Part shown: positions 2,046-24,000 of the stretch, in pieces
Layout: every line of letters starts with the position of its first letter
Numbering within the stretch: position 1 is the stretch's first letter
Assembly: GCA_963790525.1 (NCBI GenBank)
Contig: CAWBOV010000003.1
Coordinates: forward strand, 21,279 to 45,278
Source of the DNA: an uncultured Actinomycetota bacterium
GTDB lineage: Bacteria; Actinomycetota; Actinomycetes; Mycobacteriales; Jatrophihabitantaceae
Direction of reading: 5' to 3'
DNA: 24,000 nucleotides
Position numbers and translations under genes: made by a program
The notes under the pieces: model-generated
Seen by the model: the letters and a program-made list of their open reading frames with translations, nothing else
What the model was told of the DNA's origin: nothing
Databases searched by the model: none

Positions 2046-2124
2046 CGGTAGGTAGGGCCGCAGGGTGGATCGGGCGCCGAGCCGCAGGCGACTTCATATC
2101 CGCTTGGGCGAAAAGGCGGTCGCG

Positions 2125-3180
2125 ATGCCTTCTGATGCTGCGATCAAAGCAGAGGAAACCCTCATTCATGTGCTCTGGATCAATGCCGGGCTCAGCTGCG
2201 ACGGTGACTCGGTCGCGCTCACCGCGGCCACCCAACCGTCCATCGAAGAGATCGCGCTGGGCGCCCTGCCGGGGCTGCCGAAGATCGCGGTGCATTGGCC
2301 ACTGATCGACTTCGAGTGCGGCCCGACCGGGGGCGCCGACGACTTCCTGGAATGGTTCTTCAAGGCCGACCGAGGCGAACTCGAGCCCTTCGTGCTCGTC
2401 GTCGAGGGCTCGATACCCAACGAGGCGCTGCACGAGGAGGGCTACTGGTGCGGGTTCGGCAACGACCCGGCCACCGGTCAGCCCATGACGACCAGCGAGT
2501 GGCTCGATCGGCTCGCCCCGAAGGCGACGGCCATCATCGCCGCGGGCACGTGCGCGACCTACGGTGGAATCCATGCCATGGCCGGTAATCCGACAGGGGC
2601 GATGGGGGTACCGGACTACCTGGGTTGGGACTGGAAGTCGAAGGCCGGCATCCCGATCGTCTGCGTGCCGGGATGCCCGGTGCAGCCGGACAATCTCTCC
2701 GAGACGATCACGTACCTGCTGTACATGGCCACCGGCCAGGCGCCGATGATCCCGCTGGACAACGCGCTCCGTCCGAGCTGGCTGTTCGGCCAGACAGTGC
2801 ACGAGGGGTGCGACCGGGCCGGGTACTACGAGCAGGGTGACTTCGCGACCGAGTACGGCTCGCCGAAGTGCATCGTCAAGCTCGGCTGCTGGGGCCCGGT
2901 CGTGAAGTGCAACGTGCCCAAGCGCGGCTGGCTGAACGGCGTCGGCGGCTGCCCGAACGTCGGCGGGATCTGCATCGGCTGCACCATGCCCGGTTTCCCC
3001 GACAAGTTCATGCCGTTCATGGACGAGCCGCCCGGCAGCAAGGTGTCGGCCACGGCGTCGGGGGTGTACGGCAAGGCGGTCCGTAGCCTGCGCGCGATCA
3101 CGAACAAGACGCTCGACCAGGAACCGAAGTGGCGTGGCCGCGGAGCCGAACTGACCACCGGGGCGACCAGAACCTGGTAG
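2125..3180 (+). CDS. hhyS: [NiFe]-hydrogenase small subunit, group 1h/5 type (no Tat signal)
   Basis: MPSDAAIKAEETLIHVLWINAGLSCDGDSVALTAA..., followed by Fe-S ligand motifs GTCATYGG, CVPGCP, HEGCDR, KLGCWGPVVKCNVP and GGICIGCTMPGFPD. I chose ATG 2125 because the track start at 2065 adds an Arg-rich leader. No RRxFxK twin-arginine leader is present. Confidence 0.9.
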   Translation: MPSDAAIKAEETLIHVLWINAGLSCDGDSVALTAATQPSIEEIALGALPGLPKIAVHWPLIDFECGPTGGADDFLEWFFKADRGELEPFVLVVEGSIPNEALHEEGYWCGFGNDPATGQPMTTSEWLDRLAPKATAIIAAGTCATYGGIHAMAGNPTGAMGVPDYLGWDWKSKAGIPIVCVPGCPVQPDNLSETITYLLYMATGQAPMIPLDNALRPSWLFGQTVHEGCDRAGYYEQGDFATEYGSPKCIVKLGCWGPVVKCNVPKRGWLNGVGGCPNVGGICIGCTMPGFPDKFMPFMDEPPGSKVSATASGVYGKAVRSLRAITNKTLDQEPKWRGRGAELTTGATRTW

Positions 3181-3243
3181 GCGGCCCAGCGCAACGACCC
3201 GCCCCATCCGGGCAGTGCCCGGCGACCCAGAGAGGCACCCGTC

Positions 3244-5040
3244 ATGACCTCGACCCGCTCCCGCCCGAGCCACGCCAGCGCCGAGGGCTCGGATGGCCTC
3301 GTCGAGATGTCCTGGGATCCCATCACGCGGATCGTGGGCAGTCTCGGCATCTACACAAAGATCGACTTCAAGCAGCGGGTCGTCGCCGAGTGCCACAGCA
3401 CGTCCTCGATCTTCCGCGGGTACTCGATCTTCATGAAGGGCAAGGACCCCCGGGACGCGCACTTCATCACCAGCCGGATCTGCGGGATCTGTGGCGACAA
3501 CCACGCGACGTGCTCGTGCTACGCGCAGAACATGGCCTACGGCGTGAAGCCGCCGCCCATCGGCGAGTGGATCGTGAACCTGGGTGAAGCGGCCGAGTAC
3601 ATGTTCGACCACAACATCTTCCAGGAGAACCTCGTCGGCGTGGACTACTGCGAGAAGATGGTCTCCGAGACGAACCCCGGCGTGCTGGAGCTGGCCAACA
3701 ACACCGAAGCGCCGCATGTGGGCGACCACGGCTACCGGACCATCGGCGACATCATGCGCTCGCTGAATCCGTTCACCGGCGAGTTCTACCGCGAGGCGCT
3801 GCAGGTCAGCCGCTCGACGCGGGAGATGTTCTGCCTCATGGAGGGGCGTCACGTGCACCCGTCCACGCTCTACCCGGGCGGCGTCGGCACGGTCGCGACG
3901 ATCCAGTTGATGACCGACTACATCACCCGGCTGATGCGCTACGTCGAGTTCATGAAGAAGGTCGTGCCGATGCACGACGACCTGTTCGACTTCTTCTACC
4001 AGGCACTGCCGGGCTACGAGCAGGTCGGCCTGCGCCGCACGTTGCTGGCCTGCTGGGGCTCGTTCCAGGACCCCGACTACTGCAACTTCGACTACAAGGA
4101 CATGACCCAGTGGGGCCGCAAGATGTACGTCACGCCGGGCGTCGTGGTCGACGGAAAGCTCGTGACCACGGACCTGGTCGAGATCAACCTGGGCATCCGG
4201 ATCCTGCTCGGCAGCTCCTACTACGACGACTGGGACGGCCAGGAGATCTTCGTCAAGAACGACCCGCTGGGCAATCCGGTCGATCGGCGCCACCCGTGGA
4301 ACCAGCACACCAACCCGCGTCCGCAGAAGCGCGATCTGGACGAGAAGTACAGCTGGGTGATGTCACCGCGGTGGTTCGACGGCAAGGACTATCTCGCGCT
4401 CGACACCGGCGGTGGCCCGCTGGCTCGGCTGTGGTCGACGGCGCTCGCCGGACTGGTCGACATCGGGTACGTGCAGTCGACCGGCAGCAGCGTCAAGATC
4501 AACCTGCCGAAGACGGCGCTGAAGGGTCCGGTCGAGTTCGAGTGGAAGATCCCGCAGTGGAGTAACACGATCGAGCGCAACCGGGCGCGCACGTACTTCC
4601 AGGCGTACGCGGCCGCGTGTGCGCTGCACTTCGCGGAGAAGGCGCTCGTCGAGATCCGGGCCGGCCGCACGAAGACGTGGGAGAAGTTCGAGGTGCCGGA
4701 CGAGGGCATCGGCTGCGGCTTCACCGAGGCCGTCCGCGGCGTGCTGAGCCACCACATGGTGATCAGGGACGGCAAGATCGCGAACTACCACCCGTATCCA
4801 CCGACGCCGTGGAACGCCAACCCGCGCGACTCCTTCGGCACGCCGGGTCCCTACGAGGACGCGGTGCAGGGTCAGCCGATCTTCGAGGAGAACGACCGCG
4901 AGCACTTCAAGGGCATCGACATCATGCGGACCGTGCGCAGCTTCGATCCGTGCCTGCCGTGCGGCGTGCACATGTACCTCGGCGGGGGCGTGACCCTGGA
5001 GGCGCTGCATTCGCCCACGCAGTCCGTCACCGGCGAATGA
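3244..5040 (+). CDS. hhyL: [NiFe]-hydrogenase large subunit, group 1h/5 (high-affinity, actinobacterial type)
   Basis: 598 aa. RBS AGAGAGG is about 8 nt upstream. The N-terminal Ni-Fe ligand motif is TSRICGICGDNH (RICGICGDNH = 3475-3504). The C-terminal motif SFDPCLPCGVH is at 4939-4971, followed by a 22-aa tail (MYLGGGVTLEALHSPTQSVTGE) expected to be removed by the endopeptidase. These motif variants are diagnostic of group 1h/5. Confidence 0.95.
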   Translation: MTSTRSRPSHASAEGSDGLVEMSWDPITRIVGSLGIYTKIDFKQRVVAECHSTSSIFRGYSIFMKGKDPRDAHFITSRICGICGDNHATCSCYAQNMAYGVKPPPIGEWIVNLGEAAEYMFDHNIFQENLVGVDYCEKMVSETNPGVLELANNTEAPHVGDHGYRTIGDIMRSLNPFTGEFYREALQVSRSTREMFCLMEGRHVHPSTLYPGGVGTVATIQLMTDYITRLMRYVEFMKKVVPMHDDLFDFFYQALPGYEQVGLRRTLLACWGSFQDPDYCNFDYKDMTQWGRKMYVTPGVVVDGKLVTTDLVEINLGIRILLGSSYYDDWDGQEIFVKNDPLGNPVDRRHPWNQHTNPRPQKRDLDEKYSWVMSPRWFDGKDYLALDTGGGPLARLWSTALAGLVDIGYVQSTGSSVKINLPKTALKGPVEFEWKIPQWSNTIERNRARTYFQAYAAACALHFAEKALVEIRAGRTKTWEKFEVPDEGIGCGFTEAVRGVLSHHMVIRDGKIANYHPYPPTPWNANPRDSFGTPGPYEDAVQGQPIFEENDREHFKGIDIMRTVRSFDPCLPCGVHMYLGGGVTLEALHSPTQSVTGE

Positions 5041-8829: not shown

Positions 8830-9360
8830 ATGACCGACCGCGTACTGGTCGCCGGGATCGGAAACATCTTCTTCACCGACGATGGATTCGGCCCAGCGGT
8901 CGTCGAAGCATTGCTCAGCGATGCTGCCCGATGGCCGTTTCCGGCGCCGGTGCGGGTGGTCGACTACGGCATCCGTGGCATGCACCTGAGCTACGACCTC
9001 CTGGCCGGAGTGGGGGCGCTCGTCCTCGTCGATGCGGTGCCGCCCGGGACCGGGCAGACGGCCGTGCCCGGCGCGCTCGTCACGCTGCGGATCGGCCCGC
9101 GCGACATCGCCCACGCACCTGCCGACGTCGACGCGCACAGCATGTCGCCGGTCGCAGTGCTCGCCGGCCTCGCCCCGATGGGTGGCGAAGTCCCGACCAC
9201 GTACCTCGTCGGCTGCATCCCGGCGGACGTGTCCGACGGAATGGGCCTGAGCGAAGCGGTCCGGGCTGCCGTGGCACCGGCGGCCGACCTCGTCCACGAC
9301 CTGGTCGGCCGGTTGCTCATGGAGCGGGAATCAGCCGAACCGATGGCGGCGGGTGGTTGA
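8830..9360 (+). CDS. hupD: [NiFe]-hydrogenase maturation endopeptidase (HupD/HyaD/HybD family)
   Basis: MTDRVLVAGIGNIFFTDDGFGPAVVEAL...VRVVDYGIRGMHLSYDLL...LVLVDAV...DAHSMSPVAVL matches the family's GxGN..xxDDGxG, D and H metal-ligand pattern. The start is internal to track ORF 8338..9360. Confidence 0.85.
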   Translation: MTDRVLVAGIGNIFFTDDGFGPAVVEALLSDAARWPFPAPVRVVDYGIRGMHLSYDLLAGVGALVLVDAVPPGTGQTAVPGALVTLRIGPRDIAHAPADVDAHSMSPVAVLAGLAPMGGEVPTTYLVGCIPADVSDGMGLSEAVRAAVAPAADLVHDLVGRLLMERESAEPMAAGG

Positions 9361-9361
9361 C

Positions 9362-9591
9362 GTGTGTCTCGGAATTCCCGGCCAGGTGGTCGCACGGGTC
9401 GAGGGCTACGGCGATCAACTCGTCCTCGTCGACGTGGTGGGCGCCCAACGACAGATCAACATCGGCATGCTCGACGACGGCGACCAGGCCGCGCTGGCGG
9501 TCGGTGACTGGGTTCTGATCCACATGGGCTTCGCCGTCGAGCGGGTCGACGAGGCCGGGGCGGCGACGGCGATGGCCGGGCTGGAGCTGAT
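9362..9591 (+). CDS. hypC: HypC/HupF-type hydrogenase assembly chaperone (copy 1); no in-frame stop as sequenced, so it reads into hypF
   Basis: GTG 9362 followed by TGT gives the obligatory (M)CLGIPGQVV N-terminus. ...GDWVLIHMGFAVERVDEAGAATAMAGLEL is typical HypC. The nominal end is set at the TGATG motif (9589-9593). The TGA there is one base out of frame with hypC. Confidence 0.75.
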
Positions 9592-11896
9592 GGGACAGGC
9601 GCGCGAGACGCGTGCACGCCGGCGCTTCCGGGTGCACGGGGTCGTCCAGGGCGTGGGTTTCCGGCCGTTCGTCTACGTGACCGCCACCGAGCTGGAACTG
9701 ACCGGGTCGGTGGCCAACGACGCGGCCGGCGTGAGCATCGAGGTCGAGGGCGAGCCGGCGGCGCTGGCCGAGTTCGCCCGCCGGCTCGAGCGGGATCCGC
9801 CGCCGCTCGCGATGGTCGAATCCGTCGAGTCGACCGAGCTCGAGGTGCTCGGGGGGACCGGGTTCGTCATCGAGGGCAGCCGGCCGGATGACCGGGCGCG
9901 CACCCTGGCCTCGCCGGACGTCGCCACGTGTGCCGACTGCCTGAGCGGAGTTCGCCGATCCGTGGCGACCGCCGGTACCGCCACCCGTTCATCACCTGCA
10001 CCAACTGCGGCCCGCGCTTCACGATCATCACCGAGCTGCCTTACGACCGGGCGGCCACGACGATGGCCGACTTCGCCCTGTGCGACGCCTGCAGGGCCGA
10101 GTACGCGGACCCGGCGGACCGGCGCTTCCACGCCCAGCCGATCGGCTGCCACGACTGCGGTCCGGTACTGGAGTTCCGCGACCGGCACGGCGGCACCGCG
10201 ACGGGTCCCGCGGCGCTGCGGACCGCGCGCGCCGCGTTGCGTGCGGGCGCGATCGTCGCCGTGAAGGGACTCGGCGGTTACCACCTGGCCTGCGACGCCG
10301 GCGACGACCTGCGGTGACCGAGCTGCGGCGCCGCAAGGGCCGCGGTCGGCAAGCCGTTCGCCCTCATGGTCGCCGACCTGGCCGTGGCCCGTGAGCTCGT
10401 GGAGATCGACGACGGAGGAGCAGGCGCTGCTGACCGGCGCTCGGCGGCCGATCGTCCTGCTGGCCCGGCGCCCCGAGGCCGCCGGGCCGGTGGCCGCGTC
10501 GGTGGCCCCGGGCACCCCGGATCTCGGGCTGATGCTGCCCTACACGCCGTTGCACCACCTGCTGTTCGGACTCGACGGTGATGACGCCGGACCGCGGGTG
10601 CTCGTGATGACCTCGGGCAACCTCGGCGGGGAACCGATCGTCACCGACGACGAGGACGCGGTGTCACGCCTGGCGGAACTGGCCGACGGCTGGCTATGGC
10701 ACGACCGGCCGATCGAGGTGCCGTGCGACGACTCGGTCGTGCGCATCGTCGACGGGGCGGAGATGGCGGTCCGGCGCTCCCGCGGTTACGCGCCCCTGCC
10801 GATCGCGCTGCCGTTCCCGGTCGCCCCGCTCCTCGCGGTCGGCGCCGACCTGAAGAGCACCTGCTGCGTGGCCGAAGGGCGCTACGCGTGGCTCAGCCAG
10901 CACGTCGGTGACATGGACGACCTGGCGACCCTGGATGCGTTCACGCACGCGGAACTGCACCTGGAGATGCTCACCGGTGTGACGCCCGAGCGCGTGGTCG
11001 CCGACGCGCCATCCGGGCTACCGCTCGAGCCGTCTGGGCACGGAGCCACGCCGCTGGACGGCCGGTCGAGACCGTCCAGCACCATCACGCCCACATCGCG
11101 TCGGTGATGGCCGAACACGGACTGGACGGCAGCGCCCCGGTCATCGGCATTGCCTTCGACGGGACGGGGTACGGCGACGACGGCGCGGTCTGGGGCGGTG
11201 AAGTGCTCGTCGCCGACTACAAGCAGTACCGCCGAGCGACCCACCTCGCCTACGTGCCGCTGGCCGGCGGCGATGCGAGCGTCGAACGTCCGTACCGGAT
11301 GGCGCTGTCGCACCTGCGAGCGGCCGGCATCGAGTGGGCCGACGACCTGCCGTGCGTCGCCGCCTGCCCGGCCGCGGAGCGCGACGTGCTGGGCCACCAG
11401 TTCGAGACCGGCTTCGGCTGCACGCCGACCTCGAGCATGGGCCGGCTCTTCGACGCGGTCGCCTCCGTGCTCGGAGTCCGTCAGCGCGTCGACTACGAAG
11501 CGCAGGCCGCGATCGAGCTGGAGGGTCTGGCCCGCTCCGCTGGCGCCGTGCAGCGGCTACCGGTTCGGTACGGATCCCGCCGGCTACGTCGACGCTTCCC
11601 CCGTTCTCCGCGCGCTCGTGCGCGACCAGCGCACCGGGGTCGCTACGGGCGAGATCGCGGGGCGCTTCCACCAGGGCGTCGCCGACCTGATCGCCGAGGT
11701 CGCCGTGCGTGAACGCGCGAACACCGGTATCGGCACCGTCGTGCTGGGCGGCGGCGTCTTCCAGAACGTGGTGCTGCTGTCGAGCGCGCGCCGGCTGCTG
11801 CGTGACGCCGGGTTCGCCGTGCTGGTGCCGTCGCGGCTGCCGCCGAACGACGGCGGTCTGGCGCTGGGACAACTCATGATCGCCGCGACGAGGTAG
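9590..11896 (+). pseudogene. hypF: Carbamoyltransferase HypF (CN-ligand synthesis), frame broken at about 8 single-nt indels
   Basis: Acylphosphatase domain: MGQARETRARRRFRVHGVVQGVGFRPFVY. Zn fingers: CADCLS|EFADP|[22 protein letters not shown]...[28 protein letters not shown]. YrdC-like region: [23 protein letters not shown]|GKPFALMVAD...EIDD|EEQALLTGARRPIVLL. Kae1-like region: HPGYRSS|VWARSHAAGRPVETVQHHHAHIASVMAEHG...GGGVFQN...PPNDGGLALGQ. Frame switches lie at 9947(+1), 9963(+1), about 10309(-1), 10347(+1), 10414(+1), 11009(+1), 11031(+1) and about 11548(+1). The stop is TAG 11894-11896. Confidence 0.88.
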
Positions 11897-11906
11897 GGAG
11901 ACTCTC

Positions 11907-12214
11907 ATGTGCCTTGCGGTTCCCGGGCAGATCATCAGCATCGCCGAGCGCGACGACACGCTGATGGCCGACGTCGACTTCGGGGGAGTGACCAAGGACG
12001 TCTGCCTGGCCTACATCCCCGATGCGGTCGTGGGGGAGTACGTCGTCGTCCACGTCGGCTTCGCCATCCAGCGACTGGACGAACGTTCGGCCCGGGAGAC
12101 GCTCGCGAACTTCGAGAAACTCGGCATCCTGACCGAGGAGTTCGGGGACGGCTTCGAGCTGGCGGCCAGGCAGGCCGGCATCACCGAGCAGGCACACACG
12201 GGAGAGGACCCCCG

Positions 12215-12218
<4 letters not shown>
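11907..12218 (+). CDS. hypC: HypC/HupF-type hydrogenase assembly chaperone (copy 2)
   Basis: RBS GGGAG at 11897-11901. [14 protein letters not shown]...[24 protein letters not shown]. The stop overlaps the hypD start (ATGA, 12215-12218). Confidence 0.9.
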
Positions 12219-13316
<1,098 letters not shown>

Positions 13317-13324
<8 letters not shown>

Positions 13325-14423
13325 TCCGCTGCTGGCCGAGCCGCGCGAGGCGGCCGACGACCCGGAGGCCGCGACGATAGACCTGGACACCTGGGTGTGC
13401 CCGGCTCCGCTGCGCGAATCGCCCGTCATCGTCATGGGACACGGTGGCGGCGGGGCGATGTCGGCCGAGCTGATCGAGCACCTGTTCCTGCCGGCCTTCG
13501 GCAGCGCCGCTGACGCGCACCTCGCCGACTCCGCCGTCGTCGAGATCGGCGGGGTGCGGCTCGCGTTCTCCACCGACTCGTTCGTGGTCAAGCCGATGTT
13601 CTTCCCCGGCGGCTCGATCGGTGACCTGGCCGTCAACGGCACGGTCAACGATCTTGCGATGGTCGGCGCGATGCCCTTGGTCCTGTCGACCGCCTTCATC
13701 CTCGAAGAGGGGACGCCGCTCGCGGAGCTGGGTCAGGTGGCCGAGGCGCTCGGCGCGGCCGCACGGCTGGCCGGCGTCAAGCTCGTCACCGGTGACACGA
13801 AGGTCGTCGACAGTGGCAGCGGCGACGGCGTGTACATCAACACCGCCGGCATCGGTCTCGTGGCCGAGGGCGTCGACATCCGGCCCGAACGGGCGTCGGC
13901 GGGCGACGTGGTGATCATCAGTGGTCAGATCGGGGTGCACGGGATCGCGGTCATGAGCTGCCGTGAGGGACTGTCCTTCGGCACCGCTGTCTCCAGCGAT
14001 TGCGCCGCCGTGCACGGGTTGGTCGCCGCGATGATCGCCACCGGCGCCGACATCCACACCCTGCGCGACCCGACCCGCGGCGGCGTCGCGGCGTCGCTGA
14101 ACGAGATCGCCCAGGCCGCCGGCGTCGGTATCACCCTGGACGAGAGGGACCTGCCGATCCCGCAGGCGGTGCGCGATGCCTGCGGGCTGCTCGGGCTCGA
14201 CCCGCTCTACGTGGCCAACGAGGGCAAGCTGCTCGCGATCGTCGCGCGGGAGGATGCCGACACGGTGCTCGCGGCCATGCGAGCGCACGAACTGGGGCGC
14301 GACGCGCTGGTGATCGGCGAGTGCGAGGCGCAGCACCCGGGCCTGCTCACGGCGCGTACCGCACTCGGCGGTACCCGGGTCGTCTCGCTGCCGATCGGTG
14401 AACAGCTGCCGCGGATCTGCTGA
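13317..14423 (+). CDS. hypE: Hydrogenase maturation carbamoyl dehydratase HypE
   Basis: 368 aa with a PurM-like fold signature ([43 protein letters not shown]). The diagnostic C-terminal PRIC motif is present. There is an 8-nt overlap with hypD. Confidence 0.93.
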
Positions 14424-16075: not shown

Positions 16076-17902
16076 TCAGCGCAGGGCGGCTGGATCCGGA
16101 GTGGAGCTGCGGAGTGCGGCGAGCACTCGCTGGTGGCTGAGCCAGCCGACGAGGGCGGAGGTGCCCGGGTCGATCACGGGGATCGCTCCGGTGGCCGATT
16201 CGAGGGCGGGGAGGGTGTCGGAGACGTGATCGGTGATGGTGGCGTGGTCGGGCCACTCGACGACGGAGGCCACGTCGGCCCCGTCGTGGTCCCCGTCGGC
16301 CATGGTGTCGGCCACTGCGCGTGCGGTCGCGACGCCGCGGTAGCGGCCGTCACGATCCAGGACGGGTAGCTGGCCGTTGTGCGCGTGGGCGAGCGCGCCG
16401 GCGGCGTCGAGGAGTGTGGCCGTGTCGAGCAGGGCCGGTCCTACCGGTTCCATCACCTCACCGACGATCACCGAGTCCAGGACGTGGGAGTGGGTGGCGG
16501 CGGTGAGGTCGACGCCGCGGCGGCGCAGTTTGAGTGTGTAGATGGTGTCGGCGGAGAGGAGATGGCTCACGCCGGTGGCCAGGACGATCGCGGCCATGAG
16601 CGGCAGGATGATCGTGTATTCCCCGGTGAGCTCGAACATGATCACCACCGCAGTGATGGGGGCGCGGGCCGCTCCGGCGAATACCGCGCCCATGCCGATG
16701 AGACCGTAGGCGCCGGCGGGACCTGCGATCCCGGGAGTGAGGTGGTGCAGGATCTGGCCGTAGCCGGATCCGAGCATGGCCCCGATGAACAGGCTGGGGG
16801 CGAAGACGCCGCCGGATCCGCCGATGCCGATGGTCAGGCTGGTGGCCAGGATCTTGCCGACGAGCAGAGCCAGCAGGAAGGCGACGGTGTACTTGCCGGC
16901 GACGCTCGAACCGAGGACCGGGTATCCCACGCCGTACATCTGCGGCAGCACGAGCAGCAGGCCGCCGAGAAGGAATCCACCGGCTGCGGGACGCAGCCAC
17001 TCCGGTCCGCGCCAGGCCCAGTCGCAGACGTCCTCGATCCAATACAGGACGCGCGTGAATCCGACGCCGACCGCTCCGGCGATCAGGCCCAGTACGGCGA
17101 AGAGCGCGTACTGCGCGAGATTTCCTACCGTGAAGGGCGGCAGGTGCAGGAACGGTTGGTTGCCCAGCGCCGCCCGGCCGATCACGCTCGCCGTGACGGA
17201 GGCGATCACGACCATGCCGAAGGACTGCGCGGCGAAGTCGGCCAGGATGAGCTCCATGGCGAAGAACACGCCGGCCAGGGGGGCATTGAATGTCGCGGCG
17301 ATCCCGCCGGCCGCGCCACACGCCACCAGCACGCGCATGCGGGACTCGGCGACCTTCACGACACGCCCCAGGGTCGAGCCCAGGGCGGATCCGATCTGGA
17401 CGATCGGTCCCTCCCGCCCGACGGAGCCGCCACCGCCGATGCACAGCGCCGACGCCAGCGCCTTGACCGCGGCCACCTGCGGGGCGATCCGACCGCCCTT
17501 CCGGGCGACGGCGTACATCACCTCAGGGACACCGTGCCCACGGGCCTCGCGGGCGAAGAAGTGGACCAGCGGGCCGTACAGCAGGCCGGCGACGACGGGG
17601 GCGAAGATCACGAAGTAGCGGCCCAGTGCCGGCACATGCGGATTGGCGACATGCCCGAGGCCGGCGTAGTCCGCATGGCCGGACAGCGCGCGGGTGAACG
17701 TCGTGATGAGCCAGCGGAAGACCACCGCACCGCCGCCCGCCCCCGCACCGACCACCAGCGCCAGTGCCAGCAGGCCACCGTTCGAGGAACGCACCGCAGT
17801 GACCACTCGCGCCCGCCCGGACTGCAGCGGAACGCCCGCCCCTGTCGGCGACCGAGACGCGCGGCGAAACCATCGACCCGATGCTGCAACCGTATCCATC
17901 AT
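16076..17902 (-). CDS. ClC-family voltage-gated chloride channel / H+-Cl- antiporter with a C-terminal CBS-domain pair
   Basis: ClC selectivity motifs GSVGREGPIVQIG, GIAATFNAPLAGVFFAMEL and GGSGGVFAPSLFIGA are present among many TM helices. The C-terminal region of about 140 aa is CBS-like (VGEVMEP...LPVLDRDGRYRGV...IPVIDP). The start is uncertain: ATG 17902 or 17899, or TTG 17917 as used in the track. Confidence 0.9.
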   Translation of the reverse strand: MMDTVAASGRWFRRASRSPTGAGVPLQSGRARVVTAVRSSNGGLLALALVVGAGAGGGAVVFRWLITTFTRALSGHADYAGLGHVANPHVPALGRYFVIFAPVVAGLLYGPLVHFFAREARGHGVPEVMYAVARKGGRIAPQVAAVKALASALCIGGGGSVGREGPIVQIGSALGSTLGRVVKVAESRMRVLVACGAAGGIAATFNAPLAGVFFAMELILADFAAQSFGMVVIASVTASVIGRAALGNQPFLHLPPFTVGNLAQYALFAVLGLIAGAVGVGFTRVLYWIEDVCDWAWRGPEWLRPAAGGFLLGGLLLVLPQMYGVGYPVLGSSVAGKYTVAFLLALLVGKILATSLTIGIGGSGGVFAPSLFIGAMLGSGYGQILHHLTPGIAGPAGAYGLIGMGAVFAGAARAPITAVVIMFELTGEYTIILPLMAAIVLATGVSHLLSADTIYTLKLRRRGVDLTAATHSHVLDSVIVGEVMEPVGPALLDTATLLDAAGALAHAHNGQLPVLDRDGRYRGVATARAVADTMADGDHDGADVASVVEWPDHATITDHVSDTLPALESATGAIPVIDPGTSALVGWLSHQRVLAALRSSTPDPAALR

Positions 17903-17933
17903 TGCAGTATGCAACAATTGCTACAGCATGCAA
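17901..17933. promoter_or_regulatory. Palindrome-rich AT-rich operator candidate between the ClC gene and the divergent marR
   Basis: TTGCA-GTA-TGCAA (17902-17914, perfect 5-bp arms), CAATTG (17915-17920) and TTGCtacaGCATGCAA (17918-17933) lie in the lowest-GC stretch of the window. The segment overlaps the ClC start-codon candidates and sits just upstream of the marR RBS. Confidence 0.4.
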
Positions 17934-17952
17934 AAGGGAGGATGATGAGCGG

Positions 17953-18456
17953 GTGAGCAAACCGACAGCGCCATCGACAACGGCGAACAAAGCCGACGTC
18001 GACGAATTCGTGACCGCGATGCTGACGGCCTCACGGGTCCTGGTCGCCGTCTCCGCGCGATCTCTGGCCGACGTCGAGGACGCTGTCACCCTGACGCAGT
18101 TCCGCACCCTGGTGGTGCTCGACGGACACGGCGAGATCAACCTCAACCGCCTCGCCGACAGCCTCGACGTCACGCCCTCCACGGCGATGCGCATGATCGA
18201 CCGGCTGCTCACCGCTGACCTCGTCACCCGCCGGGACAATCCGACCAACCGGCGTGAGGTGCTCCTCGGTCTCACCGAGACGGGCTCGCGACTGGTCCGT
18301 CAGGTCACCGCCAAGCGCCGCAAGGAGATCACCCGAATCGTGCGATCCATGCCGTCGCACCGGCGCGACGATCTCATCCGCGCGCTCCGCGAGTTCGCGG
18401 ACGCGGCCGGAGAACCAGCACCTCACCCCGACGCCGCCACCGCCCTCGCGTGGTAG
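17953..18456 (+). CDS. MarR-family transcriptional regulator, divergent from the ClC-methyltransferase pair
   Basis: I favour GTG 17953, about 11 nt after AGGGAGG at 17935-17941; the track start at 17881 would overlap the ClC 5' end. The wHTH reads LTQFRTLVVLDGHGEINLNRLADSLDVTPSTAMRMIDRLLTADLVTRRDNPTNRREVLLGLTETG. Confidence 0.8.
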   Translation: MSKPTAPSTTANKADVDEFVTAMLTASRVLVAVSARSLADVEDAVTLTQFRTLVVLDGHGEINLNRLADSLDVTPSTAMRMIDRLLTADLVTRRDNPTNRREVLLGLTETGSRLVRQVTAKRRKEITRIVRSMPSHRRDDLIRALREFADAAGEPAPHPDAATALAW

Positions 18457-18502
18457 CAAGACCTCTGCCGCAAGGCCGAATCTGTCAACGGTAGCGGGGT
18501 GA

Positions 18503-19591
18503 TCAGACGGGCGGAGCGCATCCGCAGCTGCGGCGAACCACGAGTTCGCTGTTCTCGATCTGCACGACCGGCCCGCCTGAGGGTTGTTCGACGGCGTCGA
18601 TGAGCAGGTCCGCCGCGGTCGCGCCCATCTGCTGCATGGGGTGGTTCACGGTGGTCAGTGCCGGTTCGATGGCCTCCGCGGCCTGAAGGTTGTCGAACCC
18701 GGTGACGGCCAGGTCGCCGGGAACCGCCAACCCGGCCGCGGTCGCGGCGGCGACGGCATAGGCGGCATGGAGGTCCGATGCGCACACGAAGGCGTCCGGG
18801 ACTCCCCGGGCGATCGACTGCCGGAAGGCGTCCAGGGTCTCGTGTGCATGCCATACCGCCCCGAACCCACCCTCCGGGCTCGCGGGTGGTGTCGCGCCGG
18901 CGGCGCGGAGCGCGTCGCTGAACCCCTCGAAACGGACGTCGTAGTCGACCGATCCGGACCCGATGAAGCGCAGATCGCGGTAGCCGTGGACCTCCAGCAG
19001 GTGATGCGTCAGCCGCGACATCCCCTCCCGGTTGTCCGTCCCTACCTGCCACTCCTGTCGGCGCTCGGCCTCGACCTCTGCGATCGCCACCACCGGGCGA
19101 TAGGTGGCGATCGTCTCGCGGATCTTCGTCGCCATGGAGTTGGGCATCACGGCGATCGCGTCCACCCGCGAGGCGAGGTCGCGTACCCGTTCCTCCTCGT
19201 CGCCGAGACCGTTGCCCAGAACCAGGATCGAATAGCCCCGCGCCCACGCCCGCCTCGTGAAGCCGCGTTCGACCTCGTCGATGAACAGCGGCCAGTCCCA
19301 GCACCGGGACAGGCCGTGCGCGGCGGCTGTCGAGTGGCTGAACTCGGTGTAGTCGTAGGTCCAGAATCCCAGTACCCCGGTGCGCCCCAACGCGAGGTCC
19401 CGGGCGGCACCCCGAGGGACGTAGTGCAACTCGCGGGCAGCCTGGAGGATCCGTTCCCGCGTCGCCGGAGCCACGCGTCCCGGCTTGGAGAAGGCGAACG
19501 ACACCGTCGCGATCGAGACGCCCGCCCGCTCCGCGACCGTGTAGATCGTCGGCTGCGTGGACCGGGACGTGTCCTCTGGCGGTTCGCTCAC
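18503..19591 (-). CDS. LacI-family transcriptional regulator
   Basis: The N-terminal HTH is TIYTVAERAGVSIATVSFAFSKPGRVAPATRERILQAARELHYVP, followed by a periplasmic-binding-protein-like sugar-binding core. I favour GTG 19591 (VSEPPEDTSRSTQPTIYTV). The upstream in-frame ATG 19645 and TTG 19648 would place the operator palindromes inside the CDS. Confidence 0.85.
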   Translation of the reverse strand: MSEPPEDTSRSTQPTIYTVAERAGVSIATVSFAFSKPGRVAPATRERILQAARELHYVPRGAARDLALGRTGVLGFWTYDYTEFSHSTAAAHGLSRCWDWPLFIDEVERGFTRRAWARGYSILVLGNGLGDEEERVRDLASRVDAIAVMPNSMATKIRETIATYRPVVAIAEVEAERRQEWQVGTDNREGMSRLTHHLLEVHGYRDLRFIGSGSVDYDVRFEGFSDALRAAGATPPASPEGGFGAVWHAHETLDAFRQSIARGVPDAFVCASDLHAAYAVAAATAAGLAVPGDLAVTGFDNLQAAEAIEPALTTVNHPMQQMGATAADLLIDAVEQPSGGPVVQIENSELVVRRSCGCAPPV

Positions 19592-19621
19592 CAAGCCACC
19601 ATAACTTGCGGAGAGTGCGTC

Positions 19622-19686
19622 TAAGCGCTTAAATGCTCCCAGCATCAAAGCGCTTAACAGGAAGCGCGCCCGGTTATGTGCGCGCT
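19622..19686. promoter_or_regulatory. Two LacI-type operator palindromes plus a GC-rich inverted repeat in the lacI / giant-ORF divergent region
   Basis: TAAGCGCTTA (19622-19631) is a perfect 10-bp palindrome. AAGCGCTT (19648-19655) is a perfect 8-bp palindrome, 25 bp centre to centre from the first. AGCGCGC-N10-GCGCGCT spans 19663-19686. The AANCGNTT core is the classic LacI/GalR half-site pair. Confidence 0.5.
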
Positions 19687-19714
19687 CGGATCAGCCGACG
19701 AGTGAGGAAGAACC

Positions 19715-22700
19715 ATGCGAGCGAGCACCTGGCACGATGCTGTCGAGGCATCCGCGATGGCCGGTCGGCCATCGCGATTCTCGTGGCACCCGGGGCTACG
19801 TTCCGCTCGGCGACGTCGCCTGGCCATGGTGACGATCCTCGGGCTGCTCGCCGGCATGCTGGTCGGCGGTTCGAACGCGATCGTCGGGCACGTGGCCACC
19901 GCGAGCGCGGCGACGACGCCGAGTTGCGTCAACACGCTGTACTCGGTCGACTGGTTCACGGGCACTGTCAACCAGATCGCGCTTCCGAACGGCAGCGCGA
20001 GCGGCGCCGCCGTGAGTTCTGTGGTCGGCGACCTCGGCGTGGACGAGCCCTTCGCCCGCTACAACGCACTGGCGCTCACGACGGACGGCACGACCCTGTT
20101 CGCCGCGGACCAGTCCTCGGGTACCGGTGACTACATCTACCGCATGGATGTGGCGACGGGGACCGTGACGGCGTACCCCAACGCGCAGTCCGGCATCGTG
20201 GGGTCGCTCATCGGTGGCGCGATCGATCCCGTGAACGGGCTGTACTACCTGCTCACCTTCGGCACGACGCCCACCCTCTACGCCTTCGACACCACCACGA
20301 ACACGTGGATCGGCAAGGTCGGGTCGTTCCCCGGGACAGCGGCAGGGATGAATGGTCAGAACATCTCCGACATCGCGTTCGACGCCAACGGAACGATGTT
20401 CTTCACCGCCAACACGACGTCCAACGGCCACTCGCTCTACCGCGTGAGCGGCCCGGTCCCCGCCACGGCAGGATCGGCGACGCTCACGCCGGCGCTGGTG
20501 TCGGCCGATCTGTTGCCGAACGACAACGAGATCGGCTCGTTGGCCTTCGGATCGACGGGTGACCTGTACCTCGGCCAGATCGCATCACCCCAGATACAAG
20601 AGCTGAACCCTGCGAACGGCGCGGTGGTCTCACAGTCCAGTGGTACCCCGATCCCCGGTAATCCGTCCGACTTCGCCTCCTGCGCGCAACCGTCGACCTT
20701 GACCGTGGTCAAGGACGTCGTGAACCGGACGAACAGCTCCGACGAATTCACCCTGGGCATCGGCGGCCTGGACACCCCCGCAACAGCCACCACGACCGGC
20801 ACGGCGACCGGCCTGCAGAGCGCCGCCGCCGGCCCGGTCGTCGTGAGCCCGGGCGTCGCCTACCCCGTCTCGGAATCCGGCGCGGGAAGCACCGACCTCA
20901 GCACGTATTCGGCGAGCTACCAGTGCGTCGATTCCGACAACAACGTGCTGGCATCCGGTGCGGCCACGTCGTTCGACTACACGGCGCCACCACCGGTCGA
21001 CGGGCACGGTGTCGCGGCAACCTGCACCTTCACGAATACGCCGCTCCCGCGCAGTTACACGGTGAAGAAGACCTCGTCGGCCGCGACCGCCCTTCCCGGT
21101 GACGTCGTCACCTATTCGGTGAAGGTGACCAACACGGGCCCGGTCGCCTACACCGCGGCCGACCCGGCGTCGTTCACCGACGACCTGTCCGCCGTCCTCG
21201 ACGACGCGACCTACAACGGCGACGCGTCCGGCGGCGCGACCGTCTCGGGATCCACCCTGTCGTGGTCGGGCGCTCTGGGCGTCGGCCAGACGATCACAGT
21301 CACGTACTCGGTGACGGTCAAGGACCCTGATACGGGCAACCGGACGTTGACCAACACGGTCACGCCGACCGGTCCAGGCGGCTCCTGCGTCTCCACCGCG
21401 GATTGCACCACCACGACCACCGTCCCCGGCCCCACCTACACGGTCGCCAAGAGCGCGTCGGCGAATACGGCGCAGCCCGGCGATGTCGTCACTTACTCGG
21501 TGGCGGTGAAGAACACCGGTCAGGTGGCCTACACGGCGGCCGACCCTGCGTCGTTCACCGACGACCTGTCCGCCGTCCTCGACGACGCGACCTACAACGG
21601 CGACGCCAGCAACGGGGCGACGGTCAGCGGCACCACCCTGTCCTGGTCGGGCGCCCTCGCCGTCGGGCAGACGGTGACCGTCACCTACTCGGTCACCGTG
21701 AAGAACCCCGATACCGGCGACAGGACGCTGACCAACGCCGTGGTGCCGACCGGGCCGGGCGGCACGTGCGCGACCCCGGGCGGCTGCACCACCACGACGA
21801 CCGTGCCGACGACCGGTTACACGGTCGCCAAGTCCGCCTCGGTCACCTCGGCGCAGCCCGGGGCCACGGTGACCTACACCGTGGCGGTCACCAACACCGG
21901 CCAGACCGCCTACACCGCCGCGAAGCCCGCCTCGTTCACCGACGACCTGTCCGCCGTCCTGGACGACGCCACCTACAACGGCGACGCCACCAACGGCGCC
22001 ACGGTCAGCGGGAACACGCTGTCCTGGTCGGGCGCCCTCGCGGTCGGGGCCACGGTGACAATCACCTACTCGGTCACCGTGAACGATCCCGATACCGGCG
22101 ACCACACCCTGACGAACGTGGTGGTGCCGACCGGCCCCGGCGGCTCCTGCGCCACGCCCGCCGGCTGCACCACGACCACCCCCGTGGCCTCGTTCACGGT
22201 CGCCAAGACCGCCTCCGCTGCCAGCGTCCTGCCCGGCGGAACCCTCACCTACTCGGTCGCCGTGAAGAACACCGGCGAGGTCGCCTACACCGGAGCGAAC
22301 CCGGCCTCGTTCACCGACGACCTGTCCGCCGTCCTGGACGACGCCACCTACAACGGCGACGCCGACCATGGCGCCACCGTCACCGGCCACACGCTGTCCT
22401 GGTCCGGCGCCCTCGCGGTCGGGGGAACGGTGACGATCACGTACTCGGTCACGGTCGCCAGCCCCGACACCGGCGATCATCTGCTGACGAACGCCGTGGT
22501 GCCGACGGGCCCGGGTGGCGGCTGTGTCAGCGCGGCCGGCTGCACGACCACCACCCCGGTCGCGTCGTACACCGTCGCGAAGACGGCCTCGGTGAACTCG
22601 GCGATGCCCGGCGACACCGTCACCTACACCGTGACCGCCGTGAACACCGGCCAGGTCGCCTACACGCAGGCCACTCCGGCGACCTTCACCGACGACCTCT

Positions 22701-24000
22701 CGGCGGTGCTGGACGACGCCACCTACAACGGCGACGCCACCAACGGGGCGACGGTCACCGGCAGCACGCTGTCCTGGTCCGGCGCCCTCCCCGTCGGCGG
22801 GACCGTGACGGTCACCTACTCGGTCACCGTGAAGAACCCGGACACCGGCAATCACCTGCTCACGAACGCCGTCGTGCCGACCGGCCCCGGCGGCGGCTGC
22901 GCCACCGCGGGCGGCTGCACGACCACCACGCCCGTCGGGTCGCTGCACGTCGTGAAGTCCACGACGGCGACCCAGGTACTGCCCGGCGCGACGGTGCCCT
23001 ACTCCGTCACCGTCACCAACACCGGCCAGGTCCCGTACACAGCGGCCCATCCGGCCTCGTTCACCGATGATCTGTCCTCTGTCCTGGACGACGCCACCTA
23101 CAACGGTGACGCGGCCAGCTCCAGCGGGCAGGGCGTGACCTACAGCGCTCCGGTGCTGTCCTGGTCGGGTGCCCTCGCGGTCGGGGCCACCGTCACGGTC
23201 ACCTACTCGGTGACCGTGAGCAGCCCGGACACCGGTGACCACCAACTCGAGAACGCGGTCGTCACGCCGCCCGGCGCAGGCGGCAACTGCCCGGCCGGCT
23301 CGACCGACCCCGACTGCGTCGTCAACGTCCCTTCAGGTTCGTTCACGGTCAGCAAGACGGCATCGGCGACCACCGCGAAGCCGGGCGACACCGTCACCTA
23401 CACGGTCACGGCCCACAACTCCGGCAACATCGCCTACACGGCGCAGAACCCGGCGTCCTTCACCGACGACCTGTCGGCGGTGCTGGACGACGCGACCTAC
23501 AACGGTGATGCCACCGCAGGCGCGACCGTCGCCGGTGACACCCTGTCGTGGTCGGGTCCGCTCCCCGCCGGGGGCACTGTCACCGTCACCTACTCGGTGA
23601 CCGTGCACGACCCGGACACCGGGGACCACGTCCTCACCAATGCGGTCGTGCCCACCGCGCCGGGCGGCGGGTGCGCCACCGAGGGCGGCTGCACCACCAC
23701 GACCCCGGTGTCCGGGTACACGGTCGCCAAGAGCGTGGACACGGTCGTCGCCCAGTCCGGGCAGAAAGTGACCTACACGGTCAGCGTCACGAACATCGGC
23801 CAGGTCGCCTACACGGCAGCTCACCCTGCGTCGTTCACCGACGATCTGTCGAAGGTGCTCGACGACGCCACCTACAACGGCGACGCCACCGCGGGAGCCA
23901 CGGTCACCGGCAGCACGCTGTCGTGGTCGGGCCCGCTCGCGGTCGGCGCGACGGTGCACGTGCGCTACTCGGTGACGGTGAAGACCCCGGACACCGGTGA
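19715..24000 (+). CDS. Very large secreted/surface repeat protein (>1428 aa, 3' end outside the window). It has a signal peptide, a beta-propeller-like region, a prealbumin/Cna-B-like domain and at least 8 tandem DUF11-like (TIGR01451-like) domains
   Basis: The ORF is absent from the supplied track. In my manual translation the frame starting at 19715 has no stop through 24000. RBS GAGGAAG at 19704-19710 precedes the ATG; ATG 19757 is an alternative start. The N-terminus ...RSARRRRLAMVTILGLLAGMLVGGSNAIVGHVATASA is signal-peptide-like. GC3 is strongly elevated in this frame only. Confidence 0.85.
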   Translation, partial: MRASTWHDAVEASAMAGRPSRFSWHPGLRSARRRRLAMVTILGLLAGMLVGGSNAIVGHVATASAATTPSCVNTLYSVDWFTGTVNQIALPNGSASGAAVSSVVGDLGVDEPFARYNALALTTDGTTLFAADQSSGTGDYIYRMDVATGTVTAYPNAQSGIVGSLIGGAIDPVNGLYYLLTFGTTPTLYAFDTTTNTWIGKVGSFPGTAAGMNGQNISDIAFDANGTMFFTANTTSNGHSLYRVSGPVPATAGSATLTPALVSADLLPNDNEIGSLAFGSTGDLYLGQIASPQIQELNPANGAVVSQSSGTPIPGNPSDFASCAQPSTLTVVKDVVNRTNSSDEFTLGIGGLDTPATATTTGTATGLQSAAAGPVVVSPGVAYPVSESGAGSTDLSTYSASYQCVDSDNNVLASGAATSFDYTAPPPVDGHGVAATCTFTNTPLPRSYTVKKTSSAATALPGDVVTYSVKVTNTGPVAYTAADPASFTDDLSAVLDDATYNGDASGGATVSGSTLSWSGALGVGQTITVTYSVTVKDPDTGNRTLTNTVTPTGPGGSCVSTADCTTTTTVPGPTYTVAKSASANTAQPGDVVTYSVAVKNTGQVAYTAADPASFTDDLSAVLDDATYNGDASNGATVSGTTLSWSGALAVGQTVTVTYSVTVKNPDTGDRTLTNAVVPTGPGGTCATPGGCTTTTTVPTTGYTVAKSASVTSAQPGATVTYTVAVTNTGQTAYTAAKPASFTDDLSAVLDDATYNGDATNGATVSGNTLSWSGALAVGATVTITYSVTVNDPDTGDHTLTNVVVPTGPGGSCATPAGCTTTTPVASFTVAKTASAASVLPGGTLTYSVAVKNTGEVAYTGANPASFTDDLSAVLDDATYNGDADHGATVTGHTLSWSGALAVGGTVTITYSVTVASPDTGDHLLTNAVVPTGPGGGCVSAAGCTTTTPVASYTVAKTASVNSAMPGDTVTYTVTAVNTGQVAYTQATPATFTDDLSAVLDDATYNGDATNGATVTGSTLSWSGALPVGGTVTVTYSVTVKNPDTGNHLLTNAVVPTGPGGGCATAGGCTTTTPVGSLHVVKSTTATQVLPGATVPYSVTVTNTGQVPYTAAHPASFTDDLSSVLDDATYNGDAASSSGQGVTYSAPVLSWSGALAVGATVTVTYSVTVSSPDTGDHQLENAVVTPPGAGGNCPAGSTDPDCVVNVPSGSFTVSKTASATTAKPGDTVTYTVTAHNSGNIAYTAQNPASFTDDLSAVLDDATYNGDATAGATVAGDTLSWSGPLPAGGTVTVTYSVTVHDPDTGDHVLTNAVVPTAPGGGCATEGGCTTTTPVSGYTVAKSVDTVVAQSGQKVTYTVSVTNIGQVAYTAAHPASFTDDLSKVLDDATYNGDATAGATVTGSTLSWSGPLAVGATVHVRYSVTVKTPDTG
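21056..24000 (+). repeat. In-frame tandem coding repeats, 8 copies (the last truncated by the window edge), unit 375-399 nt
   Basis: Unit starts ([YFL][TH]V.K) are at 21056, 21437, 21818, 22193, 22568, 22943, 23342 and 23717, giving periods of 381, 381, 375, 375, 375, 399 and 375 nt. A 59-nt run (21167-21225) is identical at 21548-21606. Conserved peptide blocks are PASFTDDLSAVLDDATYNGDA, LSWSGAL.VG.TVTVTYSVTV, PDTGD and GPGG.C....GCTTTT. Confidence 0.95.

Follow-up and report, generated by a model that had tools for sequence, protein, structure and literature searches.

The 5′ part of a probable fibrillar adhesin gene with a propeller head and a predicted isopeptide-bonded stalk at the edge of an Actinomycetota sequence window

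The DNA analysed here (the window) is a 24,000-nt stretch of contig CAWBOV010000003.1 from an uncultured member of the Actinomycetota, a high-GC Gram-positive host, and its 3′ end is occupied by the 5′ part of one long gene on the forward strand (Table 1). From ATG 19715 the frame translates through 1428 codons to base 24000 without a single stop, as a first-pass annotation of the sequence had stated, and the nearest in-frame stop upstream is TGA 19703–19705. That annotation had placed the Shine–Dalgarno-like GAGGAAG 5 nt ahead of the start codon; the measured spacing is 4 nt. An alternative start at ATG 19757 is possible and would leave the predicted signal peptide unchanged, and the alignment with the N terminus of the orthologue P0020 (described below) begins near residue 12. 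The gene belongs to a known kind, that of the fibrillar adhesins, and we consider it highly probable that it encodes the first part of a sortase-anchored member of this class, with a signal peptide, a ligand-binding β-propeller head and an isopeptide- and disulfide-bonded stalk of at least nine immunoglobulin (Ig)-type domains.

Table 1 Features of the adhesin gene and of the adjoining DNA, in window coordinates (aa, amino acids of the predicted protein; ORF, open reading frame; GC1 and GC3, GC content at codon positions 1 and 3)
Feature	Position	Strand	Basis or details
Divergent LacI-family regulator	18503..19591	-	Pfam LacI and Peripla_BP_3; exact protein in public assemblies
Divergent intergenic region, 123 bp	19592..19714	.	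two exact AAGCGCTTAA sites, 19623–19632 and 19648–19657, 25 bp apart
Shine–Dalgarno-like GAGGAAG	19704..19710	+	read from the sequence; 4 nt before ATG 19715
5′ part of adhesin gene, 1428 codons	19715..24000	+	no stop; GC3; Pfam and NCBIfam matches; 56%-identical colinear orthologue P0020; 3′ end past the window
Leader, aa 1–65	19715..19909	+	n-region RRRR (aa 32–35); h-region LAMVTILGLLAGMLVGG; predicted cleavage between ASA and A after about aa 65
Head, five-bladed β-propeller, no named family, aa 66–326	19910..20692	+	AlphaFold2 model, PDB fold matches, profile self-alignment
SpaA_3 (PF20674) CnaB-like domain, aa 328–443	20696..21043	+	66.5 bits (cutoff 24); K333/E387/N441; Cys404, Cys437
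R1 (DUF7927), aa 448–574	21056..21436	+	K452, D489, N547, C558/C564
R2, aa 575–701, modelled unit	21437..21817	+	K579, D616, N674, C685/C691
R3, aa 702–826	21818..22192	+	K706, D743, N801, C812/C818
R4, aa 827–951	22193..22567	+	K831, D868, N926, C937/C943
R5, aa 952–1076	22568..22942	+	K956, D993, N1051, C1062/C1068
R6, aa 1077–1209, divergent 133-aa variant	22943..23341	+	K1081, D1118, N1180, C1192/C1201
R7, aa 1210–1334	23342..23716	+	K1214, D1251, N1309, C1320/C1326
R8, aa 1335–1428, cut by the window end	23717..24000	+	K1339, D1376
Shadow ORF	19796..20431	-	shadow-type codon GC; 0 Pfam matches
Shadow ORF, 871 aa	20630..23245	-	GC1 0.93, GC3 0.57; product 25% Gly, 19% Arg; 0 Pfam matches
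Shadow ORF, 555 aa	21403..23070	+	shadow-type codon GC; 0 Pfam matches

At the base composition of the window, 1428 random codons would lack a stop with a probability of 7.6e-13. Open length alone is weak evidence for a gene, because DNA of 70% GC also keeps non-coding frames open, here for up to 900 codons. The GC content at the three codon positions (GC1, GC2 and GC3) is 0.58, 0.60 and 0.915 in the adhesin frame, with GC3 between 0.85 and 0.97 across all 450-nt sub-windows, whereas the three overlapping ORFs that a program-made list gives for the same DNA have GC1 of 0.90–0.95 and GC3 of 0.56–0.62, encode Gly/Arg/His-rich products and are without any Pfam match. The listed ORFs are shadow frames and not genes, which bears out the first impression that their products are junk, and even the longest of them, the 871-aa minus-strand ORF, compares poorly with the adhesin frame in both codon usage and homology. 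Because the codon-position GC pattern and the homology described below both favour the frame from ATG 19715 over the listed ORFs, we regard it as a real gene.

The encoded protein begins with a leader in which a basic n-region is followed by a hydrophobic core of 17 aa (Kyte–Doolittle maximum of 2.5 at aa 36–50) and by AXA sites. The layout is the same in the leader of P0020, and it agrees with the earlier description of a putative basic and hydrophobic signal peptide ending in ATASA. Behind the leader lies the head, for which an AlphaFold2 model built on a five-sequence alignment has 20 β-strands (predicted template modelling score (pTM) of 0.80; predicted local distance difference test score (pLDDT) of 73). 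When a profile of 194 such head domains is compared with itself, it aligns at offsets of about 53, 100 and 153 residues, and from the strand count together with the period of about 52 aa we assign five blades to the 263 aa of the domain. A Foldseek search of the PDB returned only generic propellers (TolB, NHL, Pizza6, YVTN and YjiK) at template modelling (TM) scores of about 0.5, with E values of 1e-7 to 1e-8 for propellers of the NHL, TolB and Kelch types, and the head profile reached a designed Kelch propeller in the PDB at an E value of 0.005. Model, fold search and profile self-alignment thus agree on a propeller of about 260 aa, close to the 250 aa for which this fold had been guessed. 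The strand motif G..[LIMF][YF] is less regular than the eight copies initially counted: it occurs four times in strict form in aa 66–326, and hydrophobic–aromatic strand motifs in the wider sense occur seven times.

No family of Pfam or NCBIfam reached its threshold in the head. The best Pfam scores were those of Reg_prop (15.1 bits, cutoff 20.4), SBBP (14.2, cutoff 20.5) and Kelch_3 (12.7, cutoff 22), and none of NHL, Kelch, WD40, YVTN, SBBP and Reg_prop rose above its gathering threshold. The head resembles the six-bladed NHL/TolB and the Kelch propellers in being an all-β toroid and in its blade motif, xxAFDxxGxLY, which recalls NHL and Kelch blades; it differs from them in having five blades of about 52 aa and not six or seven, in matching them at a TM score of only about 0.5, and in the Cys pair that would tie its ends together. 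Cys71 and Cys323 lie at opposite ends of the domain. All five relatives in the alignment have Cys323, and the four of them with a complete N terminus also have the N-terminal Cys, a layout that fits a ring-closing disulfide.

The head is followed by a domain whose match to SpaA_3 spans the whole profile (positions 1–121 of 121). It corresponds to the TLTVVKDVV...CTFTNTP domain for which a prealbumin-like fold had been proposed. SpaA_3 is listed as a predicted Lys/Glu/Asn isopeptide family in a 2025 survey of isopeptide domains (PMC12617251). K333, E387 and N441 are candidates for this triad, with a spacing of +54/+108 compared with +55/+111 in the reference (Table 1 of PMC12617251).

From aa 448 onwards the protein consists of eight tandem repeats of about 125 aa, the last cut by the window end, which are 64–82% identical to the second repeat (R2) and appear in the DNA as a period of 375 nt with 7.6 copies and a 74% match. 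Tandem Ig-like repeats related to DUF11 and TIGR01451 had been expected here, and both models matched, but DUF7927 (PF25549) is the more precise assignment: it was the best Pfam family, at 468.7 bits (cutoff 31) over eight stretches, compared with 173 bits for DUF11. DUF7507 also matched, as did, in NCBIfam, TIGR01451 and TIGR04226, an isopeptide-forming fimbrial domain of the RrgB D2 type, the latter at 104 bits. The profile searches that the first-pass annotation had suggested found DUF11, TIGR01451 and the prealbumin-like SpaA_3, with the propeller families below threshold. The sixth repeat is divergent, with 64% identity to R2 and a longer Cys loop, and its variant type is also present in P0020.

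The 2025 survey introduced DUF7927 among ten new families for which a CnaA-like Lys-Asp-Asn bond is predicted, renamed DUF11 as CLIPPER and solved a CLIPPER structure, 9IFR; isopeptide domains of these kinds are typical stalks of fibrillar adhesins, and co-occurring disulfides are frequent in Actinomycetota (PMC12617251). In the adhesin, the triad Lys and Asp are present in all eight repeats and the Asn in all seven complete ones, with the Lys in the context TVxK, the Asp in FTDDLS and the Asn in LTNxV (LENAV in R6). Their spacing of K+37 and K+95 compares with +36 and +100 in A0A6G8FG97 (K125/D161/N225; PMC12617251). Among 91 related domains from 22 other proteins, the triad residues occupy most non-gap cells of their columns (Lys 92%, first Asp 90%, Asn 78%), and it is the first Asp of the DD pair that is better conserved. 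Every complete repeat also has a Cys pair (CxxxxxC, with the longer loop in R6), and all 18 Cys of the predicted protein occur in pairs inside domains. The AlphaFold2 model of R2 (pLDDT 84.5, nine strands) has 9IFR as its best PDB match (TM scores of 0.71/0.73, root-mean-square deviation of 2.7 Å, 28% identity), followed by Cnm N2, FimA and Cna, which are CnaA-type adhesins, and by SpaA weakly. In support of the CLIPPER-like fold, the repeat profile reaches 9IFR by sequence at an E value of 0.038 and aligns the Lys and first Asp of the repeat with the Lys and Asp of 9IFR; a sequence search of the PDB with the whole adhesin gave no match.

Because a word-indexed search was nearly blind to the head, finding five relatives from the sequence (at most 39% identity) and three from the profile, an exhaustive hidden Markov model search was needed. 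This returned 1525 representative clusters at E values of at most 1e-3, 644 at 1e-10 and 156 at 1e-30. Across the top 155 relatives, a SpaA_3-like domain comes directly after 174 of 194 propellers, with one to three such cassettes per protein; P0006, P0008, P0011 and P0013 carry three per chain, the head module being reused along the stalk. Named relatives come from Streptomyces, Kitasatospora and Conexibacter, where their annotation is that of DUF7507, DUF11 or LPXTG cell-wall-anchor proteins. These relatives (for example WP_051837505.1, WP_147409011.1 and ADB52439.1) share with the adhesin the head cassette of propeller and SpaA_3 and, behind it, tandem Ig repeats of the isopeptide type, but their heads are only 35–39% identical to it and their stalks are mostly DUF7507 (CLIPPER_2) or SpaA. 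A search of genome contigs with aa 1–450 gave only matches of 25–27% identity, in one metagenome-assembled genome of the Planctomycetota and one of the Eubacteriales.

One relative is much closer. P0020, a protein of 1373 aa from Logan assembly SRR22924627, is a colinear orthologue with 56% identity over 1339 aa (63% in the head) and the same order of putative signal peptide, propeller, SpaA_3 and DUF7927 repeats. It has seven repeats compared with at least eight in the adhesin, and its complete sequence closes with LAQTG, then a hydrophobic segment and finally RRRR. Class E sortases, which are the housekeeping sortases of Actinobacteria, use LAXTG as their signal (PMC5148588). Given this end of P0020, sortase anchoring is likely for the adhesin too, by analogy; no LPXTG- or LAXTG-type sorting motif lies within its aa 1–1428, beyond which the gene continues past the window. 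A sortase motif lies within the last 50 aa in 62 of the top 155 relatives (LPxTG in 26, LAxTG in 22, IPxTG in 13 and NPxTG in one). The remaining 93, together with the position of the adhesin C terminus beyond the window, would be in keeping with a protein that is secreted or held in the envelope non-covalently, either released or retained through a membrane helix at its C terminus, with sortase playing no part. However, many of the 93 are metagenome fragments with tails that are visibly frame-shifted or cut, and the complete LAQTG signal is found in the sole close orthologue, so we consider this alternative improbable.

We propose that the adhesin functions as follows. Its signal peptide would direct it across the membrane, most likely by the Sec route, and its extracellular five-bladed propeller, with ends tied by the conserved Cys pair, would bind a ligand. 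The head would sit on a rod in which one SpaA_3 domain is followed by eight or more Ig-type domains of the CLIPPER-like DUF7927 family. Each domain would be locked by one disulfide and by a spontaneous intramolecular Lys–Asn isopeptide bond, with Glu as the catalyst of its formation in SpaA_3 and Asp in the DUF7927 repeats; such a cross-linked stalk would resist pulling, heat and proteases. A C-terminal sorting signal beyond the window would be cleaved by the housekeeping (class E) sortase, which would attach the adhesin covalently to peptidoglycan.

Two known groups of surface proteins come close to this design. The adhesin shares with CLIPPER (DUF11) fibrillar adhesins such as B9T28_05395 (9IFR; PMC12617251) the layout of a signal peptide (putative in the adhesin), a head and tandem Ig domains of the CnaA-like type, which have a Lys-Asp-Asn triad and, C-terminally, a Cys motif. 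By contrast, its repeats are closer to the sister family DUF7927, its Cys pair is CxxxxxC and not CTTC, its head is an unnamed propeller, and its host is Gram-positive, for which sortase anchoring is expected. With the Cna-, Cnm- and RrgB-type MSCRAMMs (microbial surface components recognizing adhesive matrix molecules) and pilins of Firmicutes it has in common Ig-like CnaA/CnaB domains, Lys–Asn isopeptide cross-links (predicted here) and sortase anchoring, in line with the TIGR04226 match and the Foldseek matches to Cnm N2, Cna and FimA; it differs from them in its head and in lacking a sequence-level match in the PDB and collagen-binding or pilin motifs.

Several points weigh against a sortase-anchored, ligand-binding adhesin. 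The first 48 residues of the propeller model are of low confidence, and the head is a putative binding domain with a propeller fold, a fold that enzymes can have too. The isopeptide bonds of DUF7927 and SpaA_3 are predictions in the literature as well, where a crystal structure exists for DUF11/CLIPPER only. The argument for anchoring draws on a single orthologue and on statistics of the family, with the C terminus of the adhesin itself beyond the window. Export by the twin-arginine translocation (Tat) pathway is possible, given the RRRR n-region of the putative signal peptide: the leader stretch SARRRRLAM contains RR, although its h-region is strongly hydrophobic, compared with a Tat consensus of S/T-R-R-x-F-L-K and a mildly hydrophobic h-region. 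Finally, the neighbourhoods of the relatives differ from one another, with no conserved operon partner, and thus lend no functional support.

Less likely again than a secreted form is a surface-tethered enzyme, in which the propeller would be catalytic (lactonase, phosphotriesterase or glycosidase-like) and the stalk a spacer. In its favour, the propeller profile shows a local and marginal resemblance to DFPase and strictosidine synthase (E values of 0.5–1.1), one relative is encoded beside GH32 and sugar-transporter genes, and the adhesin gene itself lies beside a LacI-family regulator. Yet those similarities are non-significant and limited to one blade, the PDB entries that match best by sequence are Kelch-type blades, which are non-catalytic, and neither Pfam nor NCBIfam yields a catalytic family above threshold; the two to three propeller–SpaA_3 cassettes per chain in some relatives suit multivalent binding better than catalysis. 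A slimmer chance still attaches to a conjugation-associated aggregation adhesin on a mobile element, which would hold mating cells together as PrgB does. This idea draws on the gene for P0020, which lies directly downstream of a type IV secretion system (T4SS)-type module (TrbC, SCO6880-family, VirB4-like and TraG/VirD4), whereas the adhesin gene follows chromosomal housekeeping genes (hydrogenase/hyp, CLC, MarR and LacI), its GC content is like that of the rest of the window, and three other relatives have unrelated neighbours.

A sortase-polymerized pilus subunit is very improbable. Gram-positive pilins typically contain SpaA-type and isopeptide domains, and R2 weakly matches FimA and SpaA, but a mass above 134 kDa with at least eight tandem repeats is the build of a monomeric fibrillar adhesin, neither a class C sortase nor a pilin cluster was found in the window or near the relatives checked, and the YPK pilin motif is absent from all 1428 aa, which led us to reject this reading. 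That the real gene is instead the listed 871-aa minus-strand or 555-aa plus-strand ORF, and the long open frame a product of chance, has ORF length in its favour and nothing else, and we discount it entirely in view of the shadow signature of these ORFs (GC1 of 0.93–0.95, GC3 of 0.57–0.62), their Gly/Arg/His-rich products without Pfam matches and the very strong homology of the adhesin frame to DUF7927, SpaA_3 and P0020.

The fibrillar adhesin thus described adds one more large isopeptide-stalk protein to the class surveyed in 2025 and leaves current understanding unchallenged. Its propeller head, with the fixed SpaA_3 pairing, is the only element undescribed in the libraries searched, which is mildly new and unsurprising for this class of protein. 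The head family is common yet unnamed, and it would merit a Pfam entry and a search for its ligand.

The divergent LacI-family gene upstream is a possible regulator of the adhesin gene. In addition to the two exact AAGCGCTTAA sites in the intergenic region, the whole window holds one further match, making three observed compared with 0.14 expected. We take the palindromic AAGCGCTT core of these sites to resemble LacI-family operators, on the model of the cre consensus, and the sites are candidate operators of this kind. A scan of 19500–19800 revealed neither a sigma-70 consensus promoter nor a terminator. A link to carbohydrate use is weakly hinted at by this LacI neighbour and by the surroundings of P0140, a relative with a DUF7927 stalk on a JGI 3300056388 contig, whose gene neighbours encode GH32 fructan hydrolases, a sugar ATP-binding cassette transporter and LacI. 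Going beyond the individual gene, we tentatively suggest, as a possibility rather than an expectation, that propeller plus SpaA_3 constitutes an undescribed adhesive head cassette of at least 1500 clusters, mainly in Actinomycetota, that is perhaps a lectin-like, sugar-binding module and here perhaps under LacI control through the two AAGCGCTTAA sites.

The adhesin ORF is indeed missing from the program-made ORF list, as the first-pass annotation had pointed out, but its absence is no annotation trap: by stated convention the list leaves out ORFs that run past either end of the source, and this ORF runs off the window end. The fear that annotation relying on the list would go wrong was not borne out either, as the gene is already included in a public gene call made on an independent assembly. 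Contig L003 (3.7 kb) of the Logan short-read assembly ERR11523676 is identical to window 17439–21196 with no mismatches and carries the gene as a partial coding sequence of 457 aa. Exact copies of the neighbouring LacI, MarR and AIR-synthase-like proteins were found on a public contig of 961,287 bp; as the source contig extends to that length, the truncation of the adhesin is due to the cut of the window. The Logan contig terminates within repeat R1, which shows that the 375-nt repeats break short-read assemblies, and the number of repeats that any assembly gives for this gene therefore deserves a check. More generally, a list that drops end-truncated ORFs hides whichever gene is largest at the edge of a window and, where GC content is high, displays long shadow ORFs in its place, a situation that a GC3 test decides immediately.

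The genes around the relatives are diverse. P0020, on L005, has T4SS and integrative and conjugative element genes as neighbours, an extracytoplasmic function (ECF) sigma factor and a weakly sortase-like gene downstream. The T4SS-type conjugation module beside it occupies L005 1–7233 and also includes DUF4913, and the P0020 gene is flanked by two ECF sigma factor genes. Overlapping its stop codon is a gene at L005 14119–14772 for a protein of 217 aa, which has a membrane helix at its N terminus and shows an MHS...VITC...R pattern. This protein matches class F sortase weakly over its full length (16.7 bits, cutoff 166) and has no sequence match in the PDB; from these features it may be a very divergent dedicated sortase. 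A dedicated sortase gene 3′ of the adhesin was considered as a conserved feature and rejected, the P0020 partner being weak and none lying beside three other relatives. P0118 is next to a LuxR-type regulator and a second CLIPPER adhesin, and P0016 is next to a nonribosomal peptide synthetase cluster.

Upstream of the adhesin, the window holds a [NiFe]-hydrogenase and hyp maturation cluster, DUF6390, a methyltransferase, a CLC channel, MarR and the divergent LacI. The small and large subunits of the hydrogenase lie at window 2065–5040, and HypD, an AIR-synthase-like (HypE-type) protein and DUF6390 follow within 11909–14423; together these two regions look like a hydrogen-oxidation cluster. Between them, hypF (window 9353–11896, plus strand) is seemingly broken by four frame switches, near 9900, 10320, 11000 and 11460, with a GC3 signal that alternates between frames 1 and 0. 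The HypF domains are nevertheless present in order across the frames (acylphosphatase, two zf-HYPF, YrdC, HypF_C and HypF_C_2, split at position 141), and a HypC-like domain shares one ORF with the hypF acylphosphatase domain. The frame switches reflect either a pseudogene or assembly indels, and hydrogenase maturation may be impaired if they are real.

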